64,000 nt of DNA from Nemertoderma westbladi (Eukaryota > Animalia > Xenacoelomorpha): positions 186,001-250,000 of the forward strand of contig JAUCBJ010009103.1 of assembly GCA_032718475.1 (NCBI GenBank). Reading direction: 5' to 3'. The translations under genes and the position numbers were made by a program. Below the pieces are notes generated by a model that saw only the letters and a list, made by a program, of their open reading frames with translations, ran no database searches and was not told the DNA's origin. Position 1 is the first letter of the stretch; every line of letters starts with the position of its first letter. Below are positions 36,401 to 63,905 of the stretch, one piece after another.

Positions 36401-39400
36401 ATTGTACTACCGTAGTATAAAATGGTACTACCGTAGTATAAAATGGTACTACCGTAGTATGAAATTGTACTACCGTAGTATGAAATGGTACTACCGTAGT
36501 ATAAAATGGTATTACCGTAGTATAAAATGGTACTACCGTAGTATGAAATTGTACTACCGTAGTATGAAATGGTACTACCGTAGTATAAAATGGTACTACC
36601 GTAGTATGAAATTGTACTACCGTAGTATGAAATGGTACTACCGTAGTATAAAATGGTACTACCGTAGTATGAAATTGTACTACCGTAGTATAAAATGGTA
36701 CAACCGTAGTATGAAATTGTACTAACCGTAGTATAAAATGGTACTACAGTAGTATAAAATGGTACTACCGTAGTATAAAATGGTACAACCGTAGTATGAA
36801 ATTGTACTAACCGTAGTATAAAATGGTACTACAGTAGTATAAAATTGTACTACCGTAGTATAAAATGGTACTACCGTAGTATAAAATGGTACAACCGTAG
36901 TATGAAATTGTACTAACCGTAGTATAAAATGGTACTACAGTAGTATAAAATGGTACTACCGTAGTAAAAAATGGTACTACCGTAGTATAAAATGGTACTA
37001 CAGTAGTATAAAATTGTACTACCGTAGTATAAAATGGTACTACCGTAGTATAAAATGGTACAACCGTAGTATGAAATGGTACTACAGTAGTATAAAATGG
37101 TACTACCGTAGTATAAAAATGGTACTACCGTAGTATAAAATGGTACTACAGTAGTATAAAATTGTACTACCGTAGTATAAAATGGTACTACCGTAGTATA
37201 AAATTGTACTAACCGTAGTATAAAATGGTACTACAGTAGTATAAAATGGTACTACCGTAGTATAAAATGGTACAACCGTAGTATGAAATTGTACTAACCG
37301 TAGTATAAAATGGTACTACAGTAGTATAAAATGGTACTACCGTAGTATAAAATGGTACTACAGTAGTATAAAATTGTACTACCGTAGTATAAAATGGTAC
37401 TACCGTAGTATAAAATGGTACAACCGTAGTATGAAATTGTACTAACCGTAGTATAAAATGGTACTACAGTAGTATAAAATGGTACTACCGTAGTATAAAA
37501 TGGTACTACCGTAGTATGAAAGGGTATTACCGTAGTATAACATGGAAATGGTACTACCGAAGTATGAAATGGTACTACCGAAGTAGGTCTAAATGGGACG
37601 AAGGTTCGTATAGGTAGACTTCACAATCTTCATTATGAATGAAGATAAATGAGCAGGTTATAGTGGCAGGCACGTCATTCTAACCAAAACAATAAAGAAA
37701 GTCAATAGCGCAGGTTATTTGATGTGGTAGTACAGCAGCCCACGCGGTCGGCGCTATGTAGTACCAGTTGTCTAGGCGGTTAATAATACTACAGTAGTAA
37801 TTAATACCTGACGGATGCCTAGGCAAGGCATGTTGTACTGCGGTAGTACTGAGTGCAGAGGCATCAGATACTACGGTAGTATCTTTTCGGGGCAGTACAG
37901 TGTTAGCTTCCAGATACACCGGCACTGAATTATTCTGGACGAAGTTGCTTACATCCATATAATATTAATAAAACAAATGTCTGAAAATATATGGTAAAAA
38001 TGAAGGGGAAATGGAAATTGAGTTATAAATAAATGGGGAAAGTGAGATGAAATACACTACTATGAATTAAAATTACTTGTGGCAGTTTGTGGAATTAAAT
38101 AAACTTATATGTGGAAGTTGATGGAGTGAAATAAACTTATATGTGGAAGTTGGTGCAGTGAAATAAACTTACATGTGGAAGTTGGTGGAGTGAAATAAAC
38201 TTACATGTGGAAGTTGGTGCAGTGAAATAAACTTACATGTGGAAATTGGTGGAGTGAAATAAACTTACATGGTGATGTTAGTAGAGTGAAATAAACTTAC
38301 ATGTGGCCTTTGATTGAAGTTTTTGACACCCGCCGAAGCACCGATTTGTCCAGCTGTCCCGGGCCAATGCTGGTTGCTACGTAACGCCGCATTGGCGTCG
38401 CCCCATAGACCCGTTACGTCGTCCCCTATTGGTGGTTTCCCTTGGAGGGGAGGGGCTTGTGAGTCGTCCCATCCGCTGCCCCCCTTCTGGGGTTTAATAA
38501 CCTGGTAAAACAACGGACAGGTTCGCTGTTGTAGTTAGAGTTACCAACAGGAAACACGGAAAATTTGAGAACACAGCATGCCTGTTCTAGAAGGCAATGT
38601 ATGTCAGAGAACCCAACTTGCACACAAAATGCTTGTTACAGAAAATAATCTAGCCGTTAGTTTCAAAACACTATTGGCGTGTTCTAGAACAAATGTTTGT
38701 TGTTGAACAAAACCGCCTGTTCTAGAGCACAAAAACCTGCCTGTTATAGAACCTGCCATGCTTGTTCTAGAAGACGAAATGACTGTCCTAGAACGCTCAA
38801 TATATGTTCTAGAACATACATACCTATTTTAGAATAAAACAAGCAGTCTATTAATGTTCCCAAGTCGTTACATATATACTATAGATAATGTGGGGCGAGC
38901 CACGAAGTTGGCGGAGCCTTAGCGAATTGACACTGTTAGGGGGTGGGTCAATTTATGCAAATAGTTGTCGTCGTCGTCGTCGTCGTCGTTGTCGTCGTCG
39001 TCGTTGTCGTCGTCGTCGTTGTCGTCGTCGTTACGATTTTGACATGCTAATAACTTTGTCGGATTTAAAGCTGCCAAGTTGAAAATTTGTAGGTATCAAT
39101 ATAAGCAAAAGTTGAGATTTTTGAGAGACTTTCAGACACCATCAGTGCAATGGTCTCCCGCTAGAGGGCCACATGTCTAAACATTAAATGGCCACCCATT
39201 TCTTTGCTTTTAATCCGTTTAAGCTGAAACTTGGGAAGTATGTACTAGACCATTAGCTGTAAATTTCAAAGGAGGCTAATCTGTCTGCAGTTCTCCAGTC
39301 TGCCGCTAGAGGGCGAAATGTCCCGAATGTGAAATTATTCTTCCATTTAGTTGTTTATGATCTGATTACGCTGAAACTTGTCATATATGTACTAGATGAC

Positions 39401-45400: not shown

Positions 45401-47549
45401 TGGTACGGCTTGTGCGGTTTTATGGTACCGGCTCAGACGGTATTGTGGTACCGGCTCAGACGGTATTGTGGTACCGGCTTGTGCGGTTTTATGGTACCGG
45501 CTCAGACGGTATTGTGGTACCGGCTCAGACTGTATTGTGGTACCGGCTTGTGCGGTTTTATGGTACCGGCTCAGACGGTATTGTGGTACCGGCTCAGACG
45601 GTATTGTGGTACCGGCTCAGACGGTATTGTGGTACCGGCTTGTGCGGTTTTATGGTACCGGCTCAGACGGTATTTTTATGGTACCGGCTCAGACGGTATT
45701 GTGGTACCGGCTTGTGCGGTTTTATGGTACCGGCTCAGACGGTATTGTGGTACCGGCTTGTGCGGTTTTATGGTACCGGCTCAAACTGTATTTTTATGGT
45801 ACCGGCTCAGACGGTATTGTGGTACCGGCTCAGACGGTATTGTGGTACCGGCTCAGACGGTATTGTGGTACCGGCTTGTGCGGTTTTATGGTACCGGCTC
45901 AGACGGTATTTTTATGGTACCGGCTCAGACGGTATTGTGGTACCGGCTTGTGCGGTTTTATGGTACCGGCTCAGACGGTATTGTGGTACCGGCTTGTGCG
46001 GTTTTATGGTACCGGCTCAGACGGTATTTTTATGGTACCGGCTCAGACGGTATTGTGGTACCGACTCAGACGGTATTGTGGTACCGGCTTGTGCGGTTTT
46101 ATGGTACCGGCTCAGACGGTATTGTGGTACCGGCTCAGACGGTATTATGGTACCGAATGATAATTAGCTATGTTTTACATAAACCCACCTGCTGGTACTC
46201 CTTTTTCTCCTCTTTCGTCATGTTTGCGAAATCCGGCCGTTTGGGGGCGGTACCTGAGTTCTTCCAGCTGTTTGACCCGGTGGGACTCCAGGGCTTCGCG
46301 GCGTTGGCCCCCGCAGCGCTGGTCGCCACCGCTGGGTTGGGGGTGGCCGGCGAGGCGGCCCAATCCGGCGTGGAGGGGCCCTCAGCCGCCGCAGCCGTCG
46401 GCGTCGCGTCCCACACCGAGGAGGAGCCGCGACGTGAACTCCCGTTGCTAGGGCCCGGTCGGTAACTAGGGGCCCCGGACGACCGGTTCGGGCCCACCGC
46501 GTCCTCCCAGGTGCCCATGTTGGTGAATGTATCGCCCGGGCGACGTCCTATCCCGCCCTCCATCAGGGCGCCCGGGTGGTGCGTGGGCGTGGATGGCGCC
46601 GTCTGTCCAGCCGACTGCCACCCCACCGACGACATGTTAACGCCCTAAAATACACAAAACCGTTTAAATTTTACTTTAACCAAAATCCACGCATTAATGA
46701 ACTTCTGTGAATGTTGAGTCAGACAATAAGTTGATGTACTCAATAGCTGAGTTACTCTTGTACTCTACGTCGTACGACGAGTGACGTGTTTGACGGTATG
46801 ATTGAACGGCATAAAATAAATAATCTCAAAGGATTTCACGTAATAAAGGAAAGGAATCCAAACAGGATAGTTAACTGTTTCACACCGTAAAAATGAATTG
46901 ATTTAGACAAAATTATGCCAATATAATAAACATAGCTAATGGACATTAATTTATAATGAACTACAGTCGGACCCGGACAGTCGGACCCGGACAGTCGGAC
47001 CCGGACAGTCGGACCCGGACAGTCGGACCCGGACAGTCGGACCCGGACAGACGTCCGGGTCAGATTTGTTCATCTGATATATTTATCTGAAAATTGTATA
47101 CCGGTAGTATTTTGTATTAAAATGTATATAAAATATAAAAAGTAACAAAACGTAACAGTAAATGTTAGTAACTGTATCTGCTTTTTTATTAATTCTAATA
47201 TAATTTACAATTTCTACATTATCAGACAGGTATAGAACGCATCCCCGTCGTAGCCACCCCCACCTACCTGCTGGTCGTGATGAAGGCTTTGCGACGGCCC
47301 ATTGGCTGGGCCGCCCTCGTCGCCCCAGATACCCAGCGTCTGGGCGCTGCTGGCCGCCGCCCCGACGTGGCTGTTGGCCGGGGTGTCGCCCCAGACACTC
47401 TTGAGTTGGTTGCCACCCCACCCGCCGTCCTGTTTGCCGCCAGGGCCTTCCCCGCGGTCCCACATTCCGCCGGCCCCCGCTGGAGGGCCGCCTCCCAGGG
47501 GGTTCCACGCGCTCGCTGTCTCTCCCCACATACCCACTTCCATGGTCAT
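18156..47549 (-). CDS. GW182: GW182/TNRC6-family miRNA silencing scaffold (gawky ortholog), spliced; join of 47268..47549, 46189..46644, 40175..40417, 38301..38501, [35404..35511], 27393..27635, 23124..23632, 22516..22867, 21845..22138, 20979..21203, 18156..18470 (~1,075 aa)
   Basis: GW/WG-rich N-terminus, motif [19 protein letters not shown]-rich exon, QQSRL motif, PAM2-like [30 protein letters not shown]|[34 protein letters not shown], and C-terminal LLPDNLLGG. All junctions are GT-AG with compatible phases. Confidence 0.95.
18628..20560 (-). mobile_element. RTE-clade LINE, truncated at both ends and frameshifted; RT domain largely open (ORF 18680..20242); lies in the last GW182 intron
   Basis: RT motifs [72 protein letters not shown]. 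Upstream linker [11 protein letters not shown] lies in another frame (20220..20549). Confidence 0.93.
20979..21203 (-). CDS. GW182: GW182 RRM exon
   Basis: [16 protein letters not shown]...[20 protein letters not shown] is the TNRC6-type RRM. AG at 21204-5, GTAAAT donor at 20978, 225 nt, phase 0-0. Confidence 0.96.
21399..21559 (+). mobile_element. ~160-bp dispersed non-autonomous element, copy 1 of 3
   Basis: Near-identical to 43550-43710 and 49851-50011 (AATGTACCAAACCAGATTGAG...CAGTGCTTTTATAGAGGATA). Confidence 0.85.
21600..21662 (-). mobile_element. tRNA-derived SINE head / tRNA relic
   Basis: Minus strand GTGTCAGAATGGTTAGAGCGCCTGACTCCCAATCTAGCGGGCACTGGTTCGAACCC has A-box and B-box at tRNA spacing, but no good acceptor stem. 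Confidence 0.6.
21845..22138 (-). CDS. GW182: GW182 exon (M2 region and first RRM strand, SGSNNW...[10 protein letters not shown])
   Basis: Acceptor CACTTTTCAG, donor GTTGGT, 294 nt, phase 0-0; joins the RRM exon in frame. Confidence 0.92.
22247..22440 (+). repeat. Diverged interspersed repeat, copy 1 (related copies at 33177-33360 and 37650-37720), preceded by (GA)n
   Basis: Shared blocks GACGCAAAT..ATCTCGG.GAATTAATAT.TCG.CTCAATGTT and TTCTAACCAAAACAATAAA...CAGGTTA. Confidence 0.7.
22516..22867 (-). CDS. GW182: GW182 PAM2-containing exon
   Basis: [29 protein letters not shown]. Acceptor AATTTCAG (phase 2), donor GTGGGT. Confidence 0.93.
23124..23632 (-). CDS. GW182: GW182 Q-rich/coiled-coil and Gly-Met repeat exon ending in [11 protein letters not shown]
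   Basis: Acceptor TATTGCAG; donor AG|GTTAGT in phase 2, which matches the next exon. Confidence 0.9.
23755..27322. repeat. 28-bp intronic minisatellite (AGGCTCCTCTCTACCRGAGGCAACCCGA), ~125 copies
   Basis: Tandem array. The many overlapping ORFs here are translations of the repeat. Confidence 0.97.
27393..27635 (-). CDS. GW182: GW182 Q-rich exon (GMKGNLV...[18 protein letters not shown]...EYQQQ)
   Basis: Acceptor TTTTTATAG, donor GTACGA, 243 nt, phase 0-0. It resembles the GW182 'AVQ.G.L.P.LLNQ' segment that precedes the Q-rich domain. Confidence 0.85.
27722..28145 (+). mobile_element. Probable Helentron-associated non-autonomous element (HINE-like) with (GACA)n microsatellite
   Basis: Begins ACTAACAAG, has a CCAAATTT-like core and GACGGACAGACAGACAGACAG near the 3' end. 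Classified from architecture only. Confidence 0.4.
28310..31472. repeat. 38-bp pyrimidine-rich intronic minisatellite (CCCTTCTCTTCTCCTGCTGTTATCCTTTAATGCTTTCT), ~83 copies
   Basis: Highly homogeneous tandem array. Confidence 0.98.
31562..32500 (-). mobile_element. RTE-clade LINE 3' fragment (same family as 18628..20560), internally deleted, with (TAG)n tail
   Basis: DFADDIALL region nearly identical to 19000-19450. C-terminus [41 protein letters not shown]. Tail TAGTAGTAGTA at ~31565-31576. Confidence 0.92.
32563..32740. repeat. 15-bp minisatellite (AGCCCAATAATTTAT) x ~11
   Basis: Tandem copies visible. Confidence 0.95.
33177..33360 (+). repeat. Diverged interspersed repeat, copy 2 (see 22247..22440)
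   Basis: Colinear similarity with 22247-22440. Confidence 0.7.
35404..35511 (-). CDS. GW182: Tentative GW182 internal/cassette exon ([36 protein letters not shown])
   Basis: GC-rich island with CTAATCAG acceptor and AAG|GTATTC donor, 108 nt, open in the phase-0 frame required by its neighbours. No recognisable motif. Confidence 0.5.
35743..37585. repeat. 21-bp intronic minisatellite (TACCGTAGTATAAAATGGTAC), ~87 copies
   Basis: Tandem array with an internal quasi-palindrome TACTAC-C-GTAGTA. Confidence 0.97.
38090..38306. repeat. 32-bp tandem repeat x7 that includes the GW182 splice donor
   Basis: Unit GAAATAAACTTACATGTGGAAGTTGGTGGAGT; the register position recurs at 38100, 38132, 38164, 38196, 38228, 38260 and 38292. 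Confidence 0.9.
38301..38501 (-). CDS. GW182: GW182 Ago-hook-like exon ([13 protein letters not shown]...DDVTGLWGD...NQRPH)
   Basis: Acceptor TTTTACCAG, donor CAT|GTAAGT, 201 nt, phase 0-0; GW and DDxTxLWG motifs. Confidence 0.9.
38875..40070 (+). mobile_element. Probable HINE/Helentron-like non-autonomous element: (TCG)n microsatellite followed by ~147-bp tandem repeats (292-bp dimer)
   Basis: (TCG/TTG)n at 38965-39032; 39150-39440 is duplicated at 39442-39732; each monomer carries CCGCTAGAGGG and TGAAACTTG. Confidence 0.65.
40175..40417 (-). CDS. GW182: GW182 exon with conserved Ago-binding motif I ([23 protein letters not shown]...GIGTHIW)
   Basis: Matches the TNRC6 LSN.GWG..P..Q..AWD motif. 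Acceptor CTGCAG, donor AAG|GTACGT, 243 nt, phase 0-0. Confidence 0.93.
40404..40650. repeat. Degenerate ~40-48-bp tandem repeat that includes the GW182 splice acceptor
   Basis: About 6 recurrences of AACGTTAGGTGYGACTGCAG..AAATAAAGT. Confidence 0.75.
40915..41340 (+). mobile_element. RTE-clade LINE 3' end (same family), inserted in the opposite orientation
   Basis: [17 protein letters not shown]...[18 protein letters not shown]...HRARST*, followed by TAGCAGTAG. Nearly identical to the reverse complement of 31590-31845. Confidence 0.92.
42305..43210. repeat. (GGGAT)n pentanucleotide satellite, ~900 bp, with an internal ~320-bp duplication
   Basis: GGGAT/GGGTT/GGATA units; block ~42335-42440 recurs at ~42653-42800. 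Confidence 0.97.
43550..43710 (+). mobile_element. ~160-bp dispersed element, copy 2 of 3
   Basis: Near-identical to 21399-21559. Confidence 0.85.
45255..46156. repeat. 23-bp intronic minisatellite with two interspersed unit types (GGTACCGGCTCAGACGGTATTGT / GGTACCGGCTTGTGCGGTTTTAT)
   Basis: About 39 tandem units, ending ~30 bp from the donor at 46188. Confidence 0.96.
46189..46644 (-). CDS. GW182: GW182 N-terminal W-rich exon ([10 protein letters not shown]...KEEKKEYQQ)
   Basis: Acceptor ATTTTAG, donor CAG|GTGGGT, 456 nt, phase 0-0; spaced Trp in a G/S/T/P context. Confidence 0.9.
46964..47050. repeat. 14-bp minisatellite (CAGTCGGACCCGGA) x6
   Basis: Tandem copies, followed by an inverted TCCGGGTC. 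Confidence 0.93.
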
Positions 47550-47564
47550 GAGGTAGAATTTACT
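47268..47564 (-). CDS. GW182: GW182 first recognisable coding exon (ATG at 47549; [10 protein letters not shown]...GGWGG...VWGD...IWGD)
   Basis: Dense GW/WG repeats, acceptor TTTTATTCAG at 47565, donor CAG|GTAGGT. The frame is open to the acceptor, so an upstream coding exon cannot be excluded. Confidence 0.88.
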
Positions 47565-47656
47565 CTGAATAAAACAAATAATTTAAAATTATAATTAAAT
47601 AATTTTTTATAATATAAATAAATAATATGAATAACAGAAGATATTACAATTCGATA

Positions 47657-50794: not shown

Positions 50795-50994
50795 ACTGGT
50801 ACAGGAAACGCACATACAAAATTTGTAAACTTTCGAACCTCAATGTTGTTGAAACACAGATTTTAGACTTGCCTAAATGAGCATTTATTGTGCGAAAATG
50901 CTAAACAATATACTGTTAAAAAAGAAACGCACAACATTAAATTGTGATATATTGATATATAATGTGATAAATAATCTGTGCTTGCAAATGAAAA

Positions 50995-51166
50995 TGGAGG
51001 TGGTTATGTACCAGTGTCCAGGTTGAACACCTCAAATATTATAAAGTGTCTGGTTGGAGATGTGTGCATTGTACTTGACACAGTGAACCCGGCGTAGCAT
51101 TCTTGTGAATGTGCCATTCAGCGATTAGGTGTCATCAGCAGTTAGTGCTCAGCATGGACTCCCATA
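50995..51166 (-). mobile_element. Old RTE-like LINE relic abutting the poly(A) of the large LINE
   Basis: Minus strand translates YGSPC*ALTADDT*SLNGTFTRMLRRVHCVKYNAHISNQTLY, matching the RTE YGxxxWxLT..LDGxYTRMLRR..HxxN..LY region. Confidence 0.6.
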
Positions 51167-51310
51167 TTTTTTTTTTTTTTTTTTTTTTTCGTATAGAGGC
51201 TGCTCGATGGCGCCATATATTAAAATAGGTTTGGTTAAAATCATGGTACATAGCACATACCAATATATAAAATACAACAGGTACAGTTGCACAAATACAT
51301 AAGAATTAGG

Positions 51311-51384
51311 TAGTCAATAAAATATACATCCCCCCAGTCAATAAAATATACATCCCCCCAGTCAATAAAATATATATCCCCCCA
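51311..51384. repeat. 24-bp repeat x3 in the LINE 3'UTR (AGTCAATAAAATATACATCCCCCC)
   Basis: Tandem copies visible. Confidence 0.85.
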
Positions 51385-51599
51385 GGGAATACACATCATC
51401 ACTAGTATAGTGTTAAATACAAAATACATAAATACATGATATAACCATCACTTATAACCAATACATGATATAAACAGATACAGGTTACAGATCCCGAATC
51501 AAATTTGTTTATATATTAGAGGAATATAAACTGTCAGGGGGGTCGGAATTTCGGCTAATTAGAAATATCAGATTGTTGTATTGGTCCCAATTAGGTTAA

Positions 51600-54500
51600 T
51601 TAAATTCCAAAGTAATCTAGTATATGCTTATGTCGGTCGCCGAATGGTATCGCCATTTGATAGCAGTTTGAGATGAAATTAGCGTCACTTTGTTCTTTCA
51701 AGCTTAATTCGCCGGGCTTTATGTTTGAAATTACTCTCCGTCTTGAGTACGTAGAGGTCAACAGCGAGCGAAGGGAGGGCAACGGGTAGGATTTGGCTGC
51801 GTTCTGATAAGTGCTGCCCAATCAAATATGGGGTTTACGGGGAATGTTGTGTAAGAGGGCGTAGCAGAGTCCTGTCTGTAAAACCTCGTTAGGGCACGAT
51901 TCCAGGCGCATAATTGTTCCAACTATTGATTTAAAGGCCTCGTCCGCTACATAGCCACATCCCATTAGTTTATAGACAGTGTTGTTACTGGCATAGTTGC
52001 CGAGGCAGAGTAGCCTTCGTAATAATTTCCTGTAGTGGATTTCCAGGGTTTCGGTTTGGGATTTCGAGAGTGCGCCAAACAAGAATTTAATCTTGTACAA
52101 TGCTGATGGGATACCAATGCCATTCCATAACCTCCCAAGTGTTTCACAGTCTAACCAGCGAGCAGTCCAAGATCTGCTTCTAAAGATTTCACAGGTGGTG
52201 GATAAGGTGGTGATGCAGTACTGTAGGGCATCATACTTCCTAATAGCAAGGTTAAACCCTAAGAAGTAAAGTGTTGTACTTTCGGGGATTAGGTATCCAT
52301 TGATATCCAGGAAGGCAGGGTACGAGGTAGGTGAACTGCAGAACCATTTTGTTTTGGAATGTTCAAGTTCTAGATCCAGCTTGTGGCACTCGTCCATTAT
52401 AAGTTTCTTTATTATTGATAGTAACAATGTGTTGGCAAGCTGTATTTTTCGAGGTGTTTGTTATTATACATTTATTATAAGTTTCATCATCCTTGTAATT
52501 TCTAACGAGCTGGTAGCCTGTAGAAGGAAGTCGTCAACATAGCCAATTACTCCAACCCATGCTGACCCAATGGAGCATCCTAGTTTATCAGCTTGCAGCT
52601 TGTTAAGGATGGTGGACGTATATATGTTGAAAAACGAGGGCGATAGTACTGATCCTTGTTTAAGTCCCTTAAGTATACTGTAGCCTGGTAATTCCACATG
52701 TTCACCAAACTTAAGGTAGATGATGGTAGCCATGTAGTAGCGACATAGGACTATCACAATGTATGGGTTGATTGATTCCGATAACTTGTACATTAACTTG
52801 GCAAGGTTCACCTCGTCAAATGCAGACTTGATGTCCATTTGACACACAAAAAGAGGTGATCTTTGACGGTAAAATTCCACGCATTCCAAGGCTAGACCAA
52901 TTGCCATGTCTATTCCAATTCTTTTTTTAAAACCTAGTTGATTTGGATTTGTTAGAATTTCATAATCTGAGAGGTACAGTTATAAGATAGTTCCCTCAAA
53001 GATCTTAGCAAAAATATGGATAGATGCGATTGGACGGTAAGAGGATAGTAACTGGCGGTTCTTCTTCTTCCCCTTATACACATGAGTAACAGTAGTGTTT
53101 CCAAATGAGGAAGGTACTTCACCAAGCCTAATTGCTCCATTAAGTATGTTGGCAATAGTTCTGGAGGTGGAGGTTGGATTTGTATTAAGTAGGTGCTCTG
53201 CTGTCAGAGACATAAAATCGAGTGATTTCCCTTTGTTGAGTTTAATAATAACTTGCTTCACAACTATGGGTGAAATGGATGGCATAAGCTCATTGTCACA
53301 TTTGTCTATCAGATTCCCTACTAGATCGTTCAGGTCGCTATGCTCTTTCTTTATTTTCTCAGATGGGGTGCATAGTTCAAATTTCTTCCTAAGCTCCTGT
53401 TGTACATTGTCAGGTGGTGCAGGTGAGTGTTTGCTGCCAAAATGGGACCAGAACATTTTTGGATTACCCTTAAAGGAGTTGCAAGCATGGGTCAGGTTGC
53501 TTTGAACTTGTTGTTTGGTTAATGTGTTTCGCAGGCGACGGACTATAGACTTGGATGAGCGAAAACTGGCCTTAAATTTTTTCTTTTCATCATAATTTGT
53601 TGAATTTTTCCATAATGAATGTAACTTTTTTGAGACAGAAATGCGTTCCTTAAGCAGAGTTGAATGAACCCATGGCTTCTTCATTTGTTTTGGCGCCTTC
53701 TTCCTTTTCCTCAGTGGTATATGTTTACGTGCTGCTTCAATGAAGATCCCTTCAACTCTTTTTGTGTATTCGTTCAGGTCTTCTGTACTCCACTGTGAGA
53801 GGGCTGATTCAAATTTCTCATTCAGAATATTAAGGTGGTCATCCACTTCGGTTTCATACTTGTTTCGGTTTTTGGGGCATGTCAGTGACCAGTGATACTT
53901 TGGTATAGTTACACGGAACAAGTTCTGTGCCTCGTCCCCGGTGGAGGCGTTTCGGGTGTGTGTCGGCATCTTTGGAGAGAAGTGAACCTCCACTGGTGTG
54001 TGGTCGGATAGATTCTTAGACTGGTCCATGCAGTGCACTTTCCCTGAATGAGAGATGGTGTCTAGCGGGGCTATTACGTGGTCCAAGTATGATATACCTG
54101 TATCCCCTCTATAGAAGCTATGACAAGGGCCGTTTATTGTTGCAAACGTATCGAAAGCTGCCATACTGTTGCGTGTCAGAAAGCGATGTAACTTTTTCCC
54201 TCTAGGGGTTGCCTTCGATCTGTTGCATCGCGTACCTTGAAGAGGTCCAACATCCGCATTGCTATCCATTAGGACGATTGGAGTTAGGTCATTGTTTACA
54301 TCCAGAACTGCCTGCAGCTGTCCCATAAAATTGTCATATAAACAGCTGCGTTTACTGGAGTCTGGGGCATAGCAGCTGCAGCATAGTAGTAGGTAATGAG
54401 CATTATCAGAAGATAAGATAGCCTTGGCCCCTATTATATTATCGTCGCAATCAACTTGGGTAACATTGGTAAATTTGCTCTTTCTCAGGAAAATAGCTAC

Positions 54501-54908
54501 ACCTCCATATGTTCGATAGAGTAAGGATTTTGCAGGTATATAGTTGCAGTGGAAGTCATCATCAAAATTTTCCAACTGGGACTTAGCCTCCATACTGTCT
54601 AGTAGGTGCTCCTGGAGAGCCAGCACATCTAAGTCAACCAGCAGTTCGTGAACATAATCAATATTATTGGTTAGGCCTCTGCAATTATAAGTACCCACCT
54701 TGAGGAGCGGTGTATTCATGTTTTCATTGTTTACACATCCACTATTTGACCTTAATACATCATTGTGTATAGCTGAGTTACCTGGTGAGCTTAGGGTATG
54801 TACGTGGGAATGTAGTTTGTGTCCAAGTTTCCTGATGGCCCTACCTCGCTTATGGGCAGGGCTCCTAAGCCTAGGGCCTTGTCCACTCCTTATTGGCCTG
54901 TTAAACAC
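51600..54908 (-). pseudogene. LINE ORF2: apurinic-like endonuclease plus reverse transcriptase, split by frameshifts (52980..54908, 52464..52907, 51822..52427, 51600..51821)
   Basis: EN motifs GTYNCRGL, LALQEHLL, YGGVAIF, YAP, MDSNAD, SYLDHVI, SDHTPV. RT motifs SSYRPIAS..FAKIFE, MDIKSAFD, GLKQGSVLSPSFFNIY, GCSIG..VIGYVDD, YFLGF. Confidence 0.93.
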
Positions 54909-55296
54909 AATACCTAATTGGGCGCTTCCGGATCAGGGTTCGATATAGATCCGAGTCCTTCAGATTCCATGCCCTACATTTAACCCCTTGAGGCCAGAAG
55001 CTTTGAGAGAGTAGTTTTCCATCTGGCTTGTTGTTGGAGCTACGTAGGCTGAAACGCATAGTTTTTGAGCCACCTCTGTTTCTAGTCACAATTCTGTCCA
55101 CCAGTACATCTCTTTCACCAAGGTAATCCAATATATCATCTTCAGTGTAGCAGCTTATCACACCTGTTATGTGGTATTCAGTTGGTAATATGGTATGGTC
55201 AGGGGACCGAGTATGAAAATTATTGTTTGCGATAGTTGGGACGGTTTCAGCTGCCGCATATCTAATTACTTTGCTAGACCTTATCCCCTGTCTCAT
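54901..55296 (-). CDS. LINE ORF1 C-terminal RRM-like domain segment
   Basis: YHITGV..TEDDILDYL..V..KTMRFSL..LLSQSFWPQGVKCRAW. The terminal FWP.GV.CR.W signature is typical of ORF1p in CR1/L2/RTEX-type LINEs. Confidence 0.8.
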   Translation of the reverse strand: MRQGIRSSKVIRYAAAETVPTIANNNFHTRSPDHTILPTEYHITGVISCYTEDDILDYLGERDVLVDRIVTRNRGGSKTMRFSLRSSNNKPDGKLLSQSFWPQGVKCRAWNLKDSDLYRTLIRKRPIRYCV

Positions 55297-55467
55297 CGGT
55301 TCGTGGGAAGCCTCCCTGAGTTAAAGGGTTGGCCTCGTCCAGGTACTGGAGTGATCGTTTATGGTAGTGAAGGTCATCGCAGTGGCTGGATACGCGGTTT
55401 TCCTCGACCTTGACGCGCATCCCTTGGTTCCTGGAGAGCCGCACCGAGGACAGGGGCGGGCTTCGTC

Positions 55468-56652
55468 CTAGTTGTCTGCAGGATGATCAGTTGTTTGACT
55501 CGACCTTGTTATATGTTTCGTCGGTTCACACGGGACCTCAGTGGGGACGATAGTAGGCCTCACCGTTGTAATTACAGATTTTCCATTATTCCCAATATTT
55601 TTTCCATTAAGCTCCGTATTGGATGATGTGTGATTATGAAGTATGAAGGTACATGTTCTGGTTCCATTGGATTTGTATTTTGTTTTTGTTTTTTTGATAG
55701 CATGGGTACTAGAGATTGGGGCAGGATTCGTTATTGGACAGGAGTCACTCAAGACTGAGTATCTATTACTGGTTGAGGTTGGCAGAGGCCCATTCTGCTC
55801 TTTGGATCTTCCTTTTCTCAGTAACTTGCGTTGACGCCTGGTGGTACTGGGACAACTAGGTGTATCAGTTTCTTTAGCTATCATTCTGGGATTGCTAGGA
55901 TCAAATGTGACACAAACAGGGGTTACCATATCCGGTGGGATGTATTCCGTGCTGTTGGGATTTGTAGGTGGGAACTGATTGGGTGAGGATACAGAGGCGG
56001 ATATTCTGCTATCAGAGAGTGAGTCCAACACTAGGTATGTAGATGAATTTGCAGGAGTTGTAGCCGAGCACTGTGAGAGGGGGCTAGAGGATGAAGCATC
56101 GTCCAGAACTATGTAATCACACTGATTCTCACGCCTATCGGGGGTTGCAGCCAATGTATCACAGCTGATGCATCTACGGCTGGGTCCAGGGAGGTAGCTA
56201 TCTGGTACAGGATGTGGTTGAGCCAGTGGCATATCTTGTATAGACTTTAGGTCAGCTTGTAATAATATTCTGGTATTCCTCTCATGGACCACCTCGTCAT
56301 TGAGCCTTTTGATTTCTTCTAGCAAGCGCTTATGATCTGTTTCAAGTTTGCTGAATCTATTTTGGAATGTAACCGTCATCGAGATTAGATCTTTCCGGAG
56401 GGTATCCATGGTGATATCGTTGGTTGAGGGGTCGGCAATTGTCAGCCGTTTCCTACATGCCTCAGTGAATTTCTTTTCATATATACAACGTAGCAACTCA
56501 TAAATATCATTGTATAATTCGTGTGTGGATACTCGATTTTTTAATTGCATTGAGGCAGCCTGTACAGGGGACATAAGAAGCTTGACATCATCTAGAAGAT
56601 TGTGCCTCATCTCTTCACCTCCTGTCTTAACCTGTGCACCAATTATGGACAA
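55468..56652 (-). CDS. LINE ORF1 segment: helical domain, coiled coil and S/T/P-rich linker
   Basis: LKNRV..LYNDIYELL; heptad-like DTLRKDL..FSKLETDHKRLLEEIKRLNDEV..LQADLKSIQD. The frame is open back to ~56800, adjoining the protease segment. Confidence 0.75.
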   Translation of the reverse strand: MSIIGAQVKTGGEEMRHNLLDDVKLLMSPVQAASMQLKNRVSTHELYNDIYELLRCIYEKKFTEACRKRLTIADPSTNDITMDTLRKDLISMTVTFQNRFSKLETDHKRLLEEIKRLNDEVVHERNTRILLQADLKSIQDMPLAQPHPVPDSYLPGPSRRCISCDTLAATPDRRENQCDYIVLDDASSSSPLSQCSATTPANSSTYLVLDSLSDSRISASVSSPNQFPPTNPNSTEYIPPDMVTPVCVTFDPSNPRMIAKETDTPSCPSTTRRQRKLLRKGRSKEQNGPLPTSTSNRYSVLSDSCPITNPAPISSTHAIKKTKTKYKSNGTRTCTFILHNHTSSNTELNGKNIGNNGKSVITTVRPTIVPTEVPCEPTKHITRSSQTTDHPADN

Positions 56653-56789
56653 TGCATTCTTTCTAGTCAGGGGTATTATTTCAGCAGCCCATTCATTATT
56701 TCCAGAGAGGGGTGCGGGGACGGTAGGGTGACACAGATTTTCAGAGTTGACAGCTTCTACTAAATCAGGCCTGCCAGATATGCCATAGC

Positions 56790-57794
56790 TTAGAGGTTGT
56801 TTGTTTTGTTTGGAACCAGTTCATGTGAGTAATGGTTTGCAGTGTGGTGGCCCAGATCTACAATCTTACAGGAATCAAGGCAGTTGTGTATCCACTGTCT
56901 GCTCTTTATACTGTCCCTCAGAAGATCTAATGCCGTATCTGATGACTGGGCCAGGCTGAGAGCGTAGAAACATACGAAAATTCCACAGTCAAAAGAATTG
57001 GGTTGTTTTGGGAGGTTTGAGGGGACTACTGTTGTCATCCATGGTGTTATGACACCAGTTTGGTACTTTTTGGGTTTTAGGTTGTCTATTTTTGACAGTA
57101 CTTTTATAATCTCAAAAGTAGTTTTGTTTGGAATGTTTCTACCAAGAGGGTCTAGACATCTCACCGCATTATCTGTTGTACTAGCTACGTGGAGTACAAA
57201 GTGGTTATTCTCTTCTCCAGGCCCATATTTTGTACACTCAGGAAAGAAAAGCAGATCAGGTTTTTTCAAGTCCGAGGTACCCAGGTATAGCTTAGCTATA
57301 TATTTAACTGCACTGAGAATGTCGTAATTCTGTGTTTGAAGCCTTAGAGTGAGGTGGATAGGCAGTGCAACGGTATGGTTATAATGTCGCACCAGTATTC
57401 CCAGGAATCCGTCAACTATGGTATCTGTTACCCATGTAGTGGGCAACAGAGTCTGCAAGTCTTTGGGGCTTGGTATAATTAATCCAGGACGTCGTTCATC
57501 AATATCCAATGATGACAGGTACTTTTTTACCTCCTCCGTCCTATTTGTATTCTTCTTGGTTGGGCTGCACGGGTAGACATCTATACATTCAGCCACTAGG
57601 TTGGTGCGTAACTTGGTGTCTCCTGTTGCTAGATCAGGGGAGTTATTGTCTAAGATGCTTGTTTGGTTTTTCAATGGGGCATCTACTGGGAAGTCAATTT
57701 CTTCAATTAGCCCATTGAGGGCCGCCTTAACCACGTGGGGTTGCATGTCTTCTGTCTGGATGTCTGGAGATGCCGAGACAAATCTATTCTCCAA
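56790..57794 (-). CDS. Ulp1/SENP-family (peptidase C48) cysteine protease domain within the LINE ORF1 region
   Basis: DLQTLLPTTWVTDTIVDGFL (WLxD motif), FFP..NNHFVL (His, 57201-57203), CLDPLG (Asp, 57150-57152), PKQPNSFDCGIFVC (oxyanion Gln 57003-57005, Cys 56985-56987), terminal SRQWI. Confidence 0.9.
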   Translation of the reverse strand: MENRFVSASPDIQTEDMQPHVVKAALNGLIEEIDFPVDAPLKNQTSILDNNSPDLATGDTKLRTNLVAECIDVYPCSPTKKNTNRTEEVKKYLSSLDIDERRPGLIIPSPKDLQTLLPTTWVTDTIVDGFLGILVRHYNHTVALPIHLTLRLQTQNYDILSAVKYIAKLYLGTSDLKKPDLLFFPECTKYGPGEENNHFVLHVASTTDNAVRCLDPLGRNIPNKTTFEIIKVLSKIDNLKPKKYQTGVITPWMTTVVPSNLPKQPNSFDCGIFVCFYALSLAQSSDTALDLLRDSIKSRQWIHNCLDSCKIVDLGHHTANHYSHELVPNKTNNL

Positions 57795-58196
57795 AAGTTT
57801 AGGTTTAAATTTGGTATTATTATTGCTCTTCTTAGTGTGTTTCTTTCTGGGGCATTGCTGTGGTGGTGTTCGGTTTCCCCTCTTTGTTGTTGTTAACTTT
57901 GGTCTGCTGGCTGTAACCTTCTTGAGCTCTGATGTGGTCTCAGATGCAGTAATTAATCTAGGGGTATCAGAGATTGGGCTAGGTGGGTTTGGTTGATTAT
58001 CATTTTTGTCTGGTCCGTCCGTATCTGGGAATTAAGTTACATTGTGTTGGTGAGGTGTAAGTAGTTGCAGCAGGGTTTGTGGCTGTGCCAGAAGGGGTTG
58101 CTGGTGCGGAAGTAATTATGGTGCTGGCATTCCTAGTACACCATGATCCGTTGCCCATAAGATCCTCTATGATAGTAGCAGTATTTGACTTAGGTG

Positions 58197-60437
58197 TTAG
58201 ATTTGTCTGGGTTGCTTGTATGGGTGTTGGTTGTGCTGGAAGTGTGGAATGAGGCGGGGATTAGCTGGCATGGGCAAAGGTTGAGACACAGGTACAGGTG
58301 TATGTTGAGACTGGGATGCTGCTAGTGGTTTATGTTTGTTTGATTTAGGAACTTTGTTTGGATGCAGCATGGACTTCCTTTTAGTGATTGCTGCCTTTAG
58401 GGACCTCGCTTGCGGTAGTTGGGGGGCGGGGCCTTTGCTCCTTGTGTGAGGCCTGCCTGTGTGTGTCTTAGTCTGGAGTGCGGGAGGGTGTGCTATGTGG
58501 GTGTCCTCAGTGATGGTTTGGCTGGTGTTAATGCTGTCATTGCCAGGAAAGTCTGATGATACAGTGTGGGGTGAAGTAGTTGTCAGTAGATCTAGTGTCC
58601 CAATGGATTTGTACAGTACATTGCTAGGACTGCAAACGGCAGTATTAGGTACGGCACTGGTATATATTGGCACTGAGTTTACAACCAACCTCATACCCAT
58701 GCAGTTATCTTGTTTCCCAATGTCCGCTGTAGTAGGTGCCGTCATTGTCTCGGTAAGCACATTACAGGTGGAGTTACCATCCGTCTCCAGGCCCCCCTGG
58801 TCCAGGTCACTGGGTCTACTAGTACCCGGACATATCTGGGCCGGGGTCGAGGCTAGCATTAAAGGATTTAGGTTCGGGAATGCTACTACCTCTGGACCGG
58901 GCGTGGTTGCTGTACAATGAAATTCTGGTAGATTCCCCCGGGTTGGGTCATCGGCTGTATGGATACCCGGGCCTACCCAACCCGGGTTCGTCGGGGAAGC
59001 TTGAAATCTTACTCGCTTAACTCGCTTGTAATCAGCCTGGTTTTCCGCTGTCCCGGAGGAGTCGACCATCTTTGATCGGAAGGGATCGCCCATCGTCATC
59101 ACAGAAGGTTCGCCCATCGTTGTTCGGGAGGGATCACCCGTCGTCACCCTGGAAGGTTCATCCGTCGTCGATCGGGAGGGATCGCCTGTGATCATACCGG
59201 AGGGTTCGCCCATCGTTGTTCGGGAGGGATCGCCCATCGTCATCACAGAAGGTTCGCCCATCATCAATCGGGAGGGATCGCCTGTGATCATACCGGAGGG
59301 TTCGCCCATCGTCAATCGGGAGGGATCACCCGTCGTCACCCAGGAAGGTTCATCCGTCGTCGATCGGGAGGGATCGCCTGTGATCATACCGGAGGGTTCG
59401 CCCATCGTTGTTCGGGAGGGATCGCCCATCGTCATCACAGAAGGTTCGCCCATCGTCAATCGGGAGGGATCACCTGTGATCATACCGGAGGGTTCGCCCA
59501 TCGTCAATCGGGAGGGATCACCCGTCGTCACCCTGGAAGGTTCATCCATCGTCGATCGGGAGGGATCGCCTGTGATCATACCGGAGGGTTCGCCCATCGT
59601 CAATCGGGAGGGATCACCCGTCGTCACCCTGGAAGGTTCATCCGTCGTCGATCGGGAGGGATCGCCTGTGATCATACCGGAGGGTTCGCCCATCGTTGTT
59701 CAGGAGGGATCGCCCATCGTCATCCCAGAGAGTTCGCCCGTCGTCAGTCGGGGGGGATCACCCATCATCACCCTGGAAGGGTCGCCCGTCGTCAATCGGG
59801 AGGGATCGCCCGTCATCATCCCAGAAGGTTCGTGCGTCGTCGTTCGGGAGGGATCACCCATCGCCATCCCGGAAGATTTGCCCGTCATCACCCTGGAAGG
59901 TTCGCCCGTCGTCAATTGGGAGGGATCGCCCATCGTCACCCCAGAGGGTTCGCCCGTCGTCACCCCAGAGGGTTCGCCCGTCTTCACTCCAGAAGGTTGG
60001 CCCGTCTTTGATCGGGAGGGATCGCCCGTCGTCACCCTGGAGGGTTCACCCGTCGTCAATCTGGAGGGATCGCCCGTCGTCATCCCGGGAGGTTTGCCCG
60101 TCGTCAATTGGGAGGGAATGCCTATCGTCACCCCGGAAGGTTCGCCCGTCTTTGATCGGGAGGGATTACCTGTCGTCATCCCAGAGGGTTCCCCCGTCGT
60201 CGACCGGGAGAGATCGCCTGTCGTCATCCCAGAAGGTTCACCCGTCCTCGATCGGGGGGAATCGCCCATCGTCATCCCGGAGGGTTCGCCCATCGTTGTT
60301 CGGGAGAGATCGCCTGTCATCATCCCAACCGGATCGCCCGTTGTCGTTCGGGAGGGATCCCCAGTCGTCCGGGTTGTAGTTGTGGGGCGGGGTACGGGTA
60401 AACGGCTTTTCGGAGGTGTTCTTACTAGGGACGGCAT
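58197..60437 (-). CDS. LINE ORF1 N-terminal segment: MPSLVRTPPKSR.., 8-aa tandem repeats and a disordered region; one in-frame TGA at 59700-59702
   Basis: ORFs 59700..60557 and 58197..59693 share a frame. The stop is a CGA>TGA change relative to sister repeat units. Confidence 0.7.
59075..60370. repeat. 24-bp coding minisatellite (~54 units) encoding TGDPSRxT/MGEPSGMx octapeptides
   Basis: Alternating GGGATCGCCC / GGTTCGCCC units, no indels, open on both strands. Confidence 0.93.
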
Positions 60438-61204
60438 CGCAGAAACTCTGCAGCAGCCTGGCTGTGCTACTGTACTGTGCAGCTGTGGGTGGTAAGAAAA
60501 ATGACAGTACAGTACCGGTAGACCGTTATTAAAACTGCAGCTACCGTATAGCACCAATGTGCCGGCGCTGCAGGGTACGGTACCACTAAAATCAATGAAG
60601 GTAGTTAAAACAAATAAGAGGTAAAACTACAAAAAGCTACGACCGGTTCCTGGACCGCGAACGGGTACAGGCTCGTACGGTAGAATGAGTCAGTCTGACT
60701 GCGTCGGTTTCAGCATTTGTGGTATGTAGCATGTAGTATGTGAGCTGCTGTCCAAGTTATCTGTTTATATAGGAGTTACTGGCTCTACTGCCGTTCTAAA
60801 TAATTGAAGAATGGAACATAAGATTCCGATGTATACACCGGAACGGTACACCTCTATTTTTGTGCAATATCTCGAGAACCTATACAATATCACCCTTGCT
60901 TCGAGGTGTAAACAGTGTAACTATAGACAAACACGAAATCAATCACACGGTTCGAATTATATTGACTTATGATGGTCCGGTACGGACCACACACCGGCAC
61001 TAGTAGAAGCTGGCCATGCAAGGATTCCAAACACAATCTGAATATCGTCGTAAAATAGCTGAGATATGGGCGTTCGAATGTTACATGTATTTACTTCCGC
61101 TGCAGGTCAATTTATTACATTTAATAAATACATAACATCTGGAACAATTCGTTTATCTCATTAAGTTGCTGGGCAACAATGCAATTCCAATACACCATGA
61201 CTAG

Positions 61205-61980
61205 AATATAGTGTCGTTTTTCAGGTACCTGAATTTTTCTAGAAATCTTAATGAGATTGCATGAAATTTGAAACAGAGTTAGTTTCATCTTCCTCATCCT
61301 TGCTGGGTGAGTCAGAATTTTAATTTTGCTTTAATACATATCTACAAGCGGTTGAAAAAAGTGTCTCCGTCGGTATTGCACCAGGTACACCGCAGTTATT
61401 CTTCAACCTTATAGCGATTTGTTGTTAACGGAAAGCTGACCGTGCAAGGATTCCAAATATGTATTAGAATCTGAATTTCGTCGTACAATTGAGATATAAG
61501 CATTGAAAAGTTTCATGGTTTGGCACTGCGCTATAGACTATCTTATTCTATTTAATAAATAATCCGCATTCTGGAACACTTTGTTTATGTAAGAGTATAA
61601 TAGTAAGAATAAGAATGTAAGAATAGTATGATTATCTAATTATTGCATTATTGTCAAGCTACGTATAATGGGATAAACAAAATTTTCTAAAATTTATTTA
61701 TTTATAATTTATTAAATATAATATAATAGCTTCGCGCAAGTGGAAAACCATGCAACTTTTGAACGCTCTTATCTCAGCTATTCTACAACGAAATTCAGAA
61801 TGTGTTTCATATTTAGAATCCTTGCAAGGTCAGCAAATTCTGGCTCACCCAGTAAGGAGGAGGAGGGAGGTGAAACTATCTCCGTTTCAAATTTCATGCA
61901 ATCTCATTAAGATACGTGTAGAAAAATCTGGGGGGGGGGGGGGGGGGGGCGCCCAGGTACCTGAATAACGACACTATTCC
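61205..61980. mobile_element. Foldback/MITE-like inverted-repeat element
   Basis: 61208-61320 is the reverse complement of 61836-61977 (ATAGTGTCG..CAGGTACCTG..TCTTAATGAGATTGCATGAAATTTGAAAC..CTGGGTGAG.CAGAATT). 61440-61520 mirrors 61750-61830. Confidence 0.75.
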
Positions 61981-63599
61981 AGGAAATGTTGTATCACTTT
62001 GATACGATTTAATATTACAGGGCATTTTGTAAGGCCCCCCAAAGGTCAATATTGTTCAACATCAATATTATTCAATGGGGCTATATAGAAATTTCAGTAA
62101 TTCCAGAGTGAGTTTAGAGGGTGGCAAGAGTATGCCGTATATATAAATAAAAAAGTAAACTTTTTAAAACAGCTGATCCTAGAGTATACCGGTACATATA
62201 TATATTATATATATATATATATTCCATAGCCCGTAAAATTTTAATTATACATGCTGAGCTGACCTATATACTGTAATAAGAATGAATGCTTTAAGCATAA
62301 ATATATAATAATGTAAAATTAATATTAATATATCGAAACTTACTTACCCAATATTACTGAGGCGACAATGTGTATGATGACAGGCAAGAGTAGCACAACT
62401 TAGCCAAGGTAAAACAAATATTGCATCAAAGTTATTAAATATATAATTTATATATAAAACTAAATAATATTTAGATAAATGCGTAATTGGAGGTAAGTAT
62501 TTTAAGCATGAGTAGATTGGCACCATTGATATGAATGCAACGAAGGAAGAACAAGGTGGAACTATTTGCAATGCTTCTAGTGTAACTGGAAATGACATCA
62601 ACAACAAGCCTGAAAAATAAAAGTGCTGATATATAATTGAGGTTGATATTTCATATAATAATATATAATGTTACAGCATCGCTTATTTGTTAAAATGTTA
62701 AGCTACTGAATATAGAATAGGACTAAAGTGTAAAGGGTACATAAATAGTTCGTTCGTTATGTACCTATAATATAAACGGATACGTTCGTTCAATTGGGAT
62801 AACTATGGAAAATTATGAGTACAGTATATGCAGACGTTTTAGTACTAAAAAAAAGCAGGTTTTTCAATTGTCCAAAAAAGTTGATTGTATTCTGGGGGAT
62901 GTATTTTGACATCTACTGGGTGTATTTCAACAAGTTATAGCTCATTTTAAAGCTAAATAATAGAGGAATGCAATGGAATAACTTCCAAATTGTTTTATTG
63001 ATATCATATTGAAATACAACATAGATAATATACCCCTATTTTTGAAAATTTTTGAAAAATGTTTTTTGAAAAATTTTTGAAAAATATTTTTGAAAATTTT
63101 TGTCCCAAACGGTAACACCTATAGGTTTTTATTGGGATTCTATAAACTAAATTCTTATTTGAAAGGAAAATCTTCGGGAAGTTGAACGTTCAAGATTTTA
63201 CGAAAAAATAAAAAATACAACCGGAGATATGGCTGGTGTTATGTGGGAGTCGATTATGTCAATTAGGATTGTCCCATGTGTAACACCAAGTGCACTGCTT
63301 TACCATGCTCTAGAATCAGTTCTAACAAACGTGATTTAAAGATTCTAATATCAGCACATAGCCCAGATATTGGTCTTTTGCGTGAGTAATCATTTGTAGC
63401 AACAATTGACTGTGGAATAGACTTTAGTTGCTTTTACATTTATCGGCATGAGCTTTGTCCCCCCTGTAACAAAAGCCTGTAACACAAAAAATCGTTACAG
63501 GGCGGGACGTCCCACATGTAACATGTAAATTGAATAAATTTGGGCAACAGAGTAGGACATGTCTCACCTGTAACACTATCAGTAGAAACGCAAATGGAC

Positions 63600-63905
63600 T
63601 ATTAATTGTATTTCTATTTAATTTAGTTGCTAAGGCTAAGAATAAGAAAATCCGTTGGATATATTTGAAGGCTGGTCACGGGAAGGGCACAGCGGATGGA
63701 GTTGGTGGAACGATTAAGAGGACATTGTCAAATATTATTGGCATGCACATTGATGGCGATACCCCTAGCTTCAAAGACATAATTGCCATGCTGAAACCAA
63801 GATATTTCTATACTCGGCTAATGATGTGGAACTGGTAAAGGATACCATACCAAGTAACATAGGCCCCCTCCAGGGAATTGGAAAGGCCCACAAGATAGAA
63901 CCAGG
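63600..63905 (+). pseudogene. DDE-type transposase fragment (Sola-like; subgroup uncertain)
   Basis: IRWIYLKAGHGKGTADGVGGTIKR matches the W....HGKG..DG.GG..KR catalytic-region motif. After a frameshift it continues ...IGPLQGIGKAHKI. Confidence 0.7.

Follow-up and report, generated by a model that had tools for sequence, protein, structure and literature searches.

A Ulp1/SENP-type protease domain in the ORF1 of a young, low-copy APE-type LINE from Nemertoderma westbladi

Proteases of the Ulp1 type have been acquired by several groups of transposable elements, namely Mutator, Ginger, CACTA and NeSL/Utopia, and in the passages of the cited papers that treat them no tested function is given. Among retrotransposons the domain is known from NeSL of nematodes and from Utopia-1_TSP, which are elements lacking long terminal repeats (non-LTR elements) with a single open reading frame (ORF); as set out in the relevant passages of PMC4640811, the Ulp1-like domain lies at the N-terminus of one protein that further comprises zinc fingers, a reverse transcriptase (RT) and, at its C-terminus, a restriction-like endonuclease; the elements are target-specific. 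Here we describe a long interspersed nuclear element (LINE) in which the same kind of domain is found in a different context, i.e. inside the ORF1 of an element that has two ORFs and an N-terminal apurinic/apyrimidinic endonuclease (APE) in ORF2. The element was found in a stretch of 64,000 nucleotides of the xenacoelomorph Nemertoderma westbladi (assembly GCA_032718475.1, contig JAUCBJ010009103.1, positions 186,001 to 250,000 of the forward strand), which as a whole is called the window and to which all coordinates refer. Membership of the NeSL/Utopia group was rejected in view of the two ORFs and the N-terminal APE, in place of a single ORF with a C-terminal restriction-like endonuclease.

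In the plant VANDAL elements (Mutator-like) a Ulp1 domain is likewise located on an accessory transposon protein with a link to anti-silencing (KAONASHI, VANC-Ulp1), where it is fused to the anti-silencing protein VANC and where, in the portion of PMC13317346 concerned, the role of the Ulp1 part is given as unknown. VANDAL is a DNA transposon and VANC binds DNA motifs (same source), whereas the partner of the domain described here is the RNA-packaging protein of a LINE. C48 domains are also, as here, carried as cargo by animal transposons such as Ginger1 and Mutator, but these are DNA transposons and the domain sits at the C-terminus of the transposase, to judge from the section of PMC2836005 that deals with them. 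The ORF1 proteins (ORF1p) of LINEs are modular and have gained other domains in a comparable way, i.e. esterase, PHD and CCHC domains (PMC3905857, PMC4120745) and, in insect LINEs, an SF1 helicase that was proposed to act as a silencing suppressor (PMC5563155); Ulp1 was not found in the main texts on these proteins. Nor is a Ulp1 or peptidase domain named in the main texts of surveys that cover the ORF1 of Jockey-superfamily elements, of L1, of the CR1 group and of LINEs from gastropods (PMC4120745, PMC5203782, PMC13343379, PMC11203168), or in the giant-transposon review PMC6431247. An APE-type LINE with Ulp1 in its ORF1 was not found in full-text searches of the literature, Repbase and Dfam being outside this scope, and a catalogued example may exist. 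An earlier annotation made from the letters of the window without database searches (the sequence-only reading) had known of no well-described LINE of this architecture; Ulp1-bearing non-LTR elements have been described after all, but the APE-type context and the placement in ORF1 stand as new. The novelty is that of a known cargo in a new position (ORF1) and in a new class of retrotransposon (APE-type), and such an independent gain adds a case of convergence and puts the enzyme on the RNA particle.

The element lies on the minus strand at 51167-60750 (5' end approximate) and is a decayed, near-full-length copy, as judged from the sequence, domain matches and public contigs. ORF2 encodes an APE followed by an RT, ORF1 a coiled coil and a C-terminal domain of the RNA-binding type, there is a 3' tail and the element exists in multiple copies, which together identify it as a two-ORF, APE-type non-LTR retrotransposon. 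The parts follow one another in the very order that the sequence-only reading had proposed, from an ATG at 60437 through octapeptide repeats, a Ser/Thr/Pro-rich linker, the C48 protease, a helical segment with coiled coil, a domain ending in FWPQGVKCRAW and ORF2 to the 3' untranslated region (UTR) and poly(A). The copy in the window is dead, with ten breaks, seven in ORF1 and three in ORF2.

The protease domain (56870-57470) matches the Pfam family Peptidase_C48 (PF02902) well above the curated cut-off (35.8 against 20.7 bits, E 9.6e-9), as the sequence-only reading would have it, and its best sequence match in the PDB is yeast Ulp1 (1euv, E 1.9e-11). The WxxD, His, Asp, Gln and Cys singled out before any alignment was made all fall in conserved columns, i.e. 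W57434, D57425, H57203, D57152, Q57005 and C56987, which represent the His-Asp-Cys order plus the oxyanion Gln; in an alignment of 75 C48 sequences the His and Gln are invariant and the Asp and Cys nearly so, and the window protease has all four. A fold model (pLDDT 84.9; 32 for a model from the single sequence) is of the CE-clan type and has SENP5 and Ulp1 as its top folds, with NEDP1 lower (SENP5: TM(target) 0.85, E 3e-10). A HMMER search of 1.84 billion representative proteins yielded 131 generic C48 proteins (best E 4.9e-11) and no close relative, and no C48 relative is more than 37% identical over the domain. None of the 131 significantly matches the downstream parts of ORF1, and RT or endonuclease domains were absent from the 52 of them that were scanned with Pfam. 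The matches include fusions with MULE, PIF1 and zf-BED, and in two of them (P0143, P0163) the C48 domain is joined to a UCH deubiquitinase domain. No long relative of the protease or of the APE region was returned when proteins were searched by words, both results being weak negatives. A FastTree phylogeny of the first 60 of 130 usable C48 matches puts the window protease on a long, unsupported branch and does not place the donor.

The fusion of this domain to the remainder of ORF1 was evaluated with public contigs of four runs (X1-X4) from three studies, compared with the stretch 50800-59050. Nine of the ten breaks are testable in this way, the tenth (59702) being masked and outside the compared stretch, and all nine occur in the open state in contigs from two studies. 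Length differences restore the open frame at 58013, 56820 (X2, X3), 55470 and 55423, a length difference is likewise present at 58261 (X1 and X3; the contig coordinates give a net 37 nt), the contigs carry sense codons at 55323, 52981 and 51824, and a 78-nt insert in the RT (52396-52473) is missing from them (joint 52395-52474 in X1, X2 and X3). A single X3 contig (2,525 nt, 58140-55613) begins upstream of the protease, passes through it and reaches into the native ORF1, and the junction at 56820 is crossed by single contigs in X2 as well as X3; both protease junctions are bridged in the open state and the protease is at multi-copy depth in X1-X3. When only the length differences are applied, with an X at each break, the read-through comes to 1,858 aa for ORF1 and 1,011 aa for ORF2, in line with the continuous ancestral ORF1p of about 1,800 aa expected from the letters alone. 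From the open state of the contigs at all nine testable breaks it follows that the protease is no private insertion, and the contigs of two studies carry it in frame, contrary to the possibility, named in advance, that other copies might lack it. Of the three refuting conditions listed with the sequence-only reading, two did not overturn it. Its flanks hold no direct repeat longer than 10 nt and no inverted repeat longer than 9 nt, so that the earlier statement that terminal inverted repeats and target-site duplications (TSDs) of a nested insertion are absent holds at the protease, but not in the RT, where the 78-nt insert is flanked by a 12-nt duplication. For X4 there is one long contig only (1,729 nt over 55805-57534, protease and helical segment), with one difference and one gap relative to the window copy. 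It keeps the window state at 56820, which means that the decayed form exists in another sample too.

Between the window copy and the contigs the divergence is 0.59-0.66%, a low value on account of which the family is called young. Depth over the protease is 70 in X1, 776-919 in X2 and 77 in X3, against 22-32, 118-143 and 10-24 in the flank, which points to roughly 3-8 copies, a figure to be read as an order of magnitude since depth is not copy number. The family is young, recently active and low-copy. With open frames visible in public reads, a comparison of the wild-type protein with a Cys-to-Ala mutant is feasible, and its outcome would bear on the question of an enzymatic counter-attack by transposons on SUMO-dependent silencing.

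Among 75 protein matches to the divergent RT, the best reach 28-34% identity; identity to APE-type relatives is 22-38%, and the branch is long. In RT trees it falls outside the Jockey, R1 and I-type rows (SH-aLRT 99), RNase-H-bearing ones among them, and beside unnamed relatives with APE and RT (84). The neighbouring group we take to be Proto2/RTE-X-like, a label that the tree does not confirm as it contains no named Proto2 or RTEX sequence. The element resembles the two-ORF APE-type relatives (an RTE-side group) in having an ORF2 with APE and RT and, by Pfam domain scan, no RNase H, in the RT motifs QGSVLSP and LTAEHL, in the WP-G end of ORF1 and in the motif NR[FY]xxL, and it differs from them in an ORF1 of about 1,860 aa with a protease versus 309-482 aa without. 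These relatives come from a metagenome scan in which 79 loci were kept from the best 80 of at least 235 confirmed stretches. C48 was found in none of the 79 (best E 0.97), and ORF1 is complete in 13 (L003, L008, L009, L013, L017, L022, L027, L028, L031, L033, L040, L043 and L049), where it starts shortly after a stop and lacks the protease in every case. They share a widespread ORF1 type that consists of a helical N-domain, a coiled coil, a linker and the WP-G domain, and no Pfam family exceeded the cut-off in the six relatives' ORF1 proteins that were scanned (five of the 13, plus L050). A search of viral contigs gave no relative of the RT.

Two parts of the window ORF1 can be matched to this type. 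Its C-terminal domain (54901-55199, with the stop at 54901-54903), presumably RRM-like and without a Pfam match, is recognised at 14.6 bits by a profile made from the ORF1 ends of 17 relatives, where the best of 200 shuffles scored 2.8, and with a hhalign probability of 73.7. The disordered linker before it (55200-56199; in the window copy interrupted by the breaks at 55470, 55423 and 55323) contains NRYSVL at 55767-55750, an instance of the motif [NS]R[FY]xxL that is present in ten of the 13 relatives' ORF1s (all but L003, L008 and L009). This motif is kept even though the rest of the linker is unalignable between the relatives and the window element. The helical segment with its coiled coil (56200-56820, with the frameshift at 56820 bridged by contigs) scored no better than shuffles against a profile of the relatives' N-domains and had no Atlas match of at least 0.9; it resembles these N-domains by eye only, and the native ORF1 of the clade probably starts with this segment. 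Since the C-terminal domain and the linker motif match protease-free ORF1s, the last ~630 residues most likely represent an ordinary ORF1, in front of which ~1,200 residues (repeats, linker and protease) would have been added. The relatives are distant and mostly from one subclade, and the spread of the fusion among closer families is not readable from them; a second lineage with the fusion turned up neither in the protein searches nor among the 79 metagenome loci.

As regards the age of this addition, the composition of the protease at four-fold sites matches that of ORF2 (p 0.37) and departs from that of the window's host exons (p 2.5e-14), which makes a recent origin of the domain in a host gene less likely. 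The CpG depletion of ORF2 is shared by linker and protease, and not by the repeats. An ancestor of the element would thus have gained the N-terminal residues long enough ago for their silent sites to come to match ORF2.

The reading that we tentatively prefer is that of a young, low-copy APE-type LINE in which the ORF1 protease would take SUMO off host proteins in the vicinity of the ribonucleoprotein particle (RNP) or chromatin and thereby weaken SUMO-dependent silencing. The C48 domain is fused in frame ahead of the RNA-packaging module, and ORF1p, which multimerises on its own RNA according to the pertinent part of PMC3905857, would coat that RNA in many copies and so concentrate the protease there. 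The enzyme could then strip SUMO from host silencing factors near the RNP or chromatin of the element, and the loss of SUMO would weaken silencing. Such factors are favoured as the target because SENP and Ulp1 rank first among the matches, because SUMOylation of Panoramix is needed for silencing guided by PIWI-interacting RNAs (piRNAs) in Drosophila (10.1101/2021.07.27.453956, as far as its cited section goes), and because the Ulp1 of VANDAL provides a precedent. An anti-silencing role of the predicted protease is plausible. The more far-reaching version, in which ORF1p multimers of a hitherto undescribed LINE lineage deliver an active deSUMOylase to their own particles and loci and dismantle the SUMO scaffold of piRNA-guided heterochromatin, is doubtful; if true, no APE-type LINE before it would have been seen to encode an anti-silencing protease, and the element would offer a compact, testable model for the repeated recruitment of Ulp1 by unrelated transposons.

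Several observations weigh against the preferred reading. The fold model was built on an alignment of C48 proteins, so that its match to SENP is partly circular. Next to the catalytic His stands a Phe, a position at which Trp is found in 72 of 74 aligned C48 relatives, and the substrate surface has Leu where 62 of the 74 have Phe and Tyr where 51 have Trp; because conserved residues of this surface differ, the substrate may not be SUMO. In SUMO proteases two Trp residues form the tunnel for the Gly-Gly end, and of these the window protease has the first, the second being Phe, while two further conserved aromatic positions differ as well; judged by these residues, the surface has diverged too far for SUMO to be preferred over NEDD8 or ubiquitin. 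The contigs are majority paths that may mix copies and constitute no proof of one intact copy, and 36 of the 76 substitutions between window and contigs were not displayed in the comparison. The ATG-proximal part (60340-60527) is at about single-copy (flank) depth in X2. The composition also matches that of an unrelated RTE element (p 0.98), for which reason a transposon donor fits equally well. Finally, the low copy number speaks of no great success against silencing.

The same diverged surface favours an alternative that we hold to be unlikely but to be taken seriously, namely that the protease is active on ubiquitin, NEDD8 or SUMO and protects ORF1p and ORF2p from degradation or steers DNA repair during integration, and does not act on chromatin silencing. 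In L1, the RNA particle is the main site of ORF1p action, at a distance from the donor chromatin, which counts for this alternative, as does the fact that NEDP1 and deubiquitinases of the CE clan match the fold as well. A role in repair pathways has moreover been proposed for the Ulp1 and OTU domains of Ginger transposases (PMC2836005, in the passage on these domains). Against this, SENP5 and Ulp1 outrank NEDP1 and the deubiquitinases both by sequence and by fold, with small margins.

That the extension was captured by template switching from a transposon or transcript, and is a functionless passenger or a non-catalytic SUMO binder in a family too young for decay, appears improbable. It would fit the divergence of only ~0.6% within the family, the failure of the searches made to find a second lineage with the fusion, and the frequent occurrence of C48 as cargo of DNA transposons, but it has to contend with ~1,200 extra codons that are in frame with the native ORF1, with the silent-site composition and CpG depletion by which linker and protease match ORF2, and with the retention of the full catalytic set. 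Less probable again is self-processing, in which the protease would cut an ORF1 polyprotein and free the RNA-binding module from its N-terminal extension, like viral CE-clan proteases. The architecture is polyprotein-like and a KTGG site, which we take to resemble the SUMO C-terminus QTGG, lies about 80 residues past the protease (residue 1282, nt 56622); Gly-Gly pairs, however, occur at chance frequency (three in 1,247 non-repeat residues versus 2.0 expected), the site is, by eye, within the helical domain common to the relatives, and folds of the adenain type come far behind Ulp1-like ones. That one copy acquired the protease as a private nested insertion or through an assembly chimera, to which the ten breaks and the one true nested insertion of the window copy might point, is highly improbable and largely refuted by the multi-copy depth in X1-X3, the open bridging of both junctions and the lack of flanking repeats.

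The 5' part of ORF1 (59073-60437) comprises the start and 54 octapeptide units at 60368-59073, of the types TTGDPSRx and TMGEPSGM. Over the repeat region there is one stop in the ORF1 frame, versus 48 and 14 in the other two frames, and this single one is a TGA at 59700-59702 where 16 other units carry CGA; among the units the proportions of synonymous and nonsynonymous differences are 0.40 (pS) and 0.24 (pN). The ATG and the ~54 repeats named by the sequence-only reading are thus present in the window copy but, given the depth near the ATG, may not belong to all copies of the family, and the family-wide span runs from linker to tail. Further upstream, depth exceeds that of the flank at 60500-60680 and is down to flank level by ~60800, and sequence and depth delimit a candidate 5' UTR (60438-60771, boundary uncertain) with a TATA-like TATATAAA at 60771-60764. 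Directly after the repeats ORF1 reads KRVKRVRFQ (59018-59004, minus strand), a basic patch that presumably fits the PP1-docking consensus RVxF and might serve for import into the nucleus, a chance match being possible. The remaining linker up to the protease (57570-59072) is of low complexity and rich in Ser, Thr and Pro, and in the window copy has the frameshifts at 58261 and 58013.

ORF2 (51600-54719, APE and RT by Pfam, ~1,011 aa when read through) is interrupted in the window copy by two stops and one insertion, the private 78-nt copy of a high-copy repeat mentioned above. The 3' UTR (51167-51599) contains three 24-nt tandem units (51312-51385) and ends in the poly(A) tail (51167-51189). 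For the element as a whole, no TSD was found as a match of at least 8 nt between the 3' flank and 58900-61400; TSDs are not obligatory in all non-LTR clades. The 78-nt insert and the 3' flank of the LINE (51027-51125) are both very high-copy repeats, which are joined together in many contigs and are probably parts of one family resembling short interspersed nuclear elements or miniature inverted-repeat transposable elements.

The LINE is situated upstream of, or in a 5' intron of, a GW182/TNRC6-like gene on the same strand, the exons of which were recognised at 22495-47582 (minus strand; at 22498-22893 the TNRC6-PABC binding domain, with E 2.5e-10, and at 46168-47582 the GW-rich exons). The window further contains RTE-like LINE fragments at 18680-20290 (RVT_1, E 2.8e-33) and 31849-32328, both on the minus strand, a high-copy element with nested inverted repeats at 61000-61980, a transposase-like fragment at 63470-63838 with a weak match to DUF7869 (E 0.083), and long satellite arrays at 1-8542, 23754-27321, 28310-31472 and 35737-37585 with periods of 21, 28, 38 and 21, respectively.

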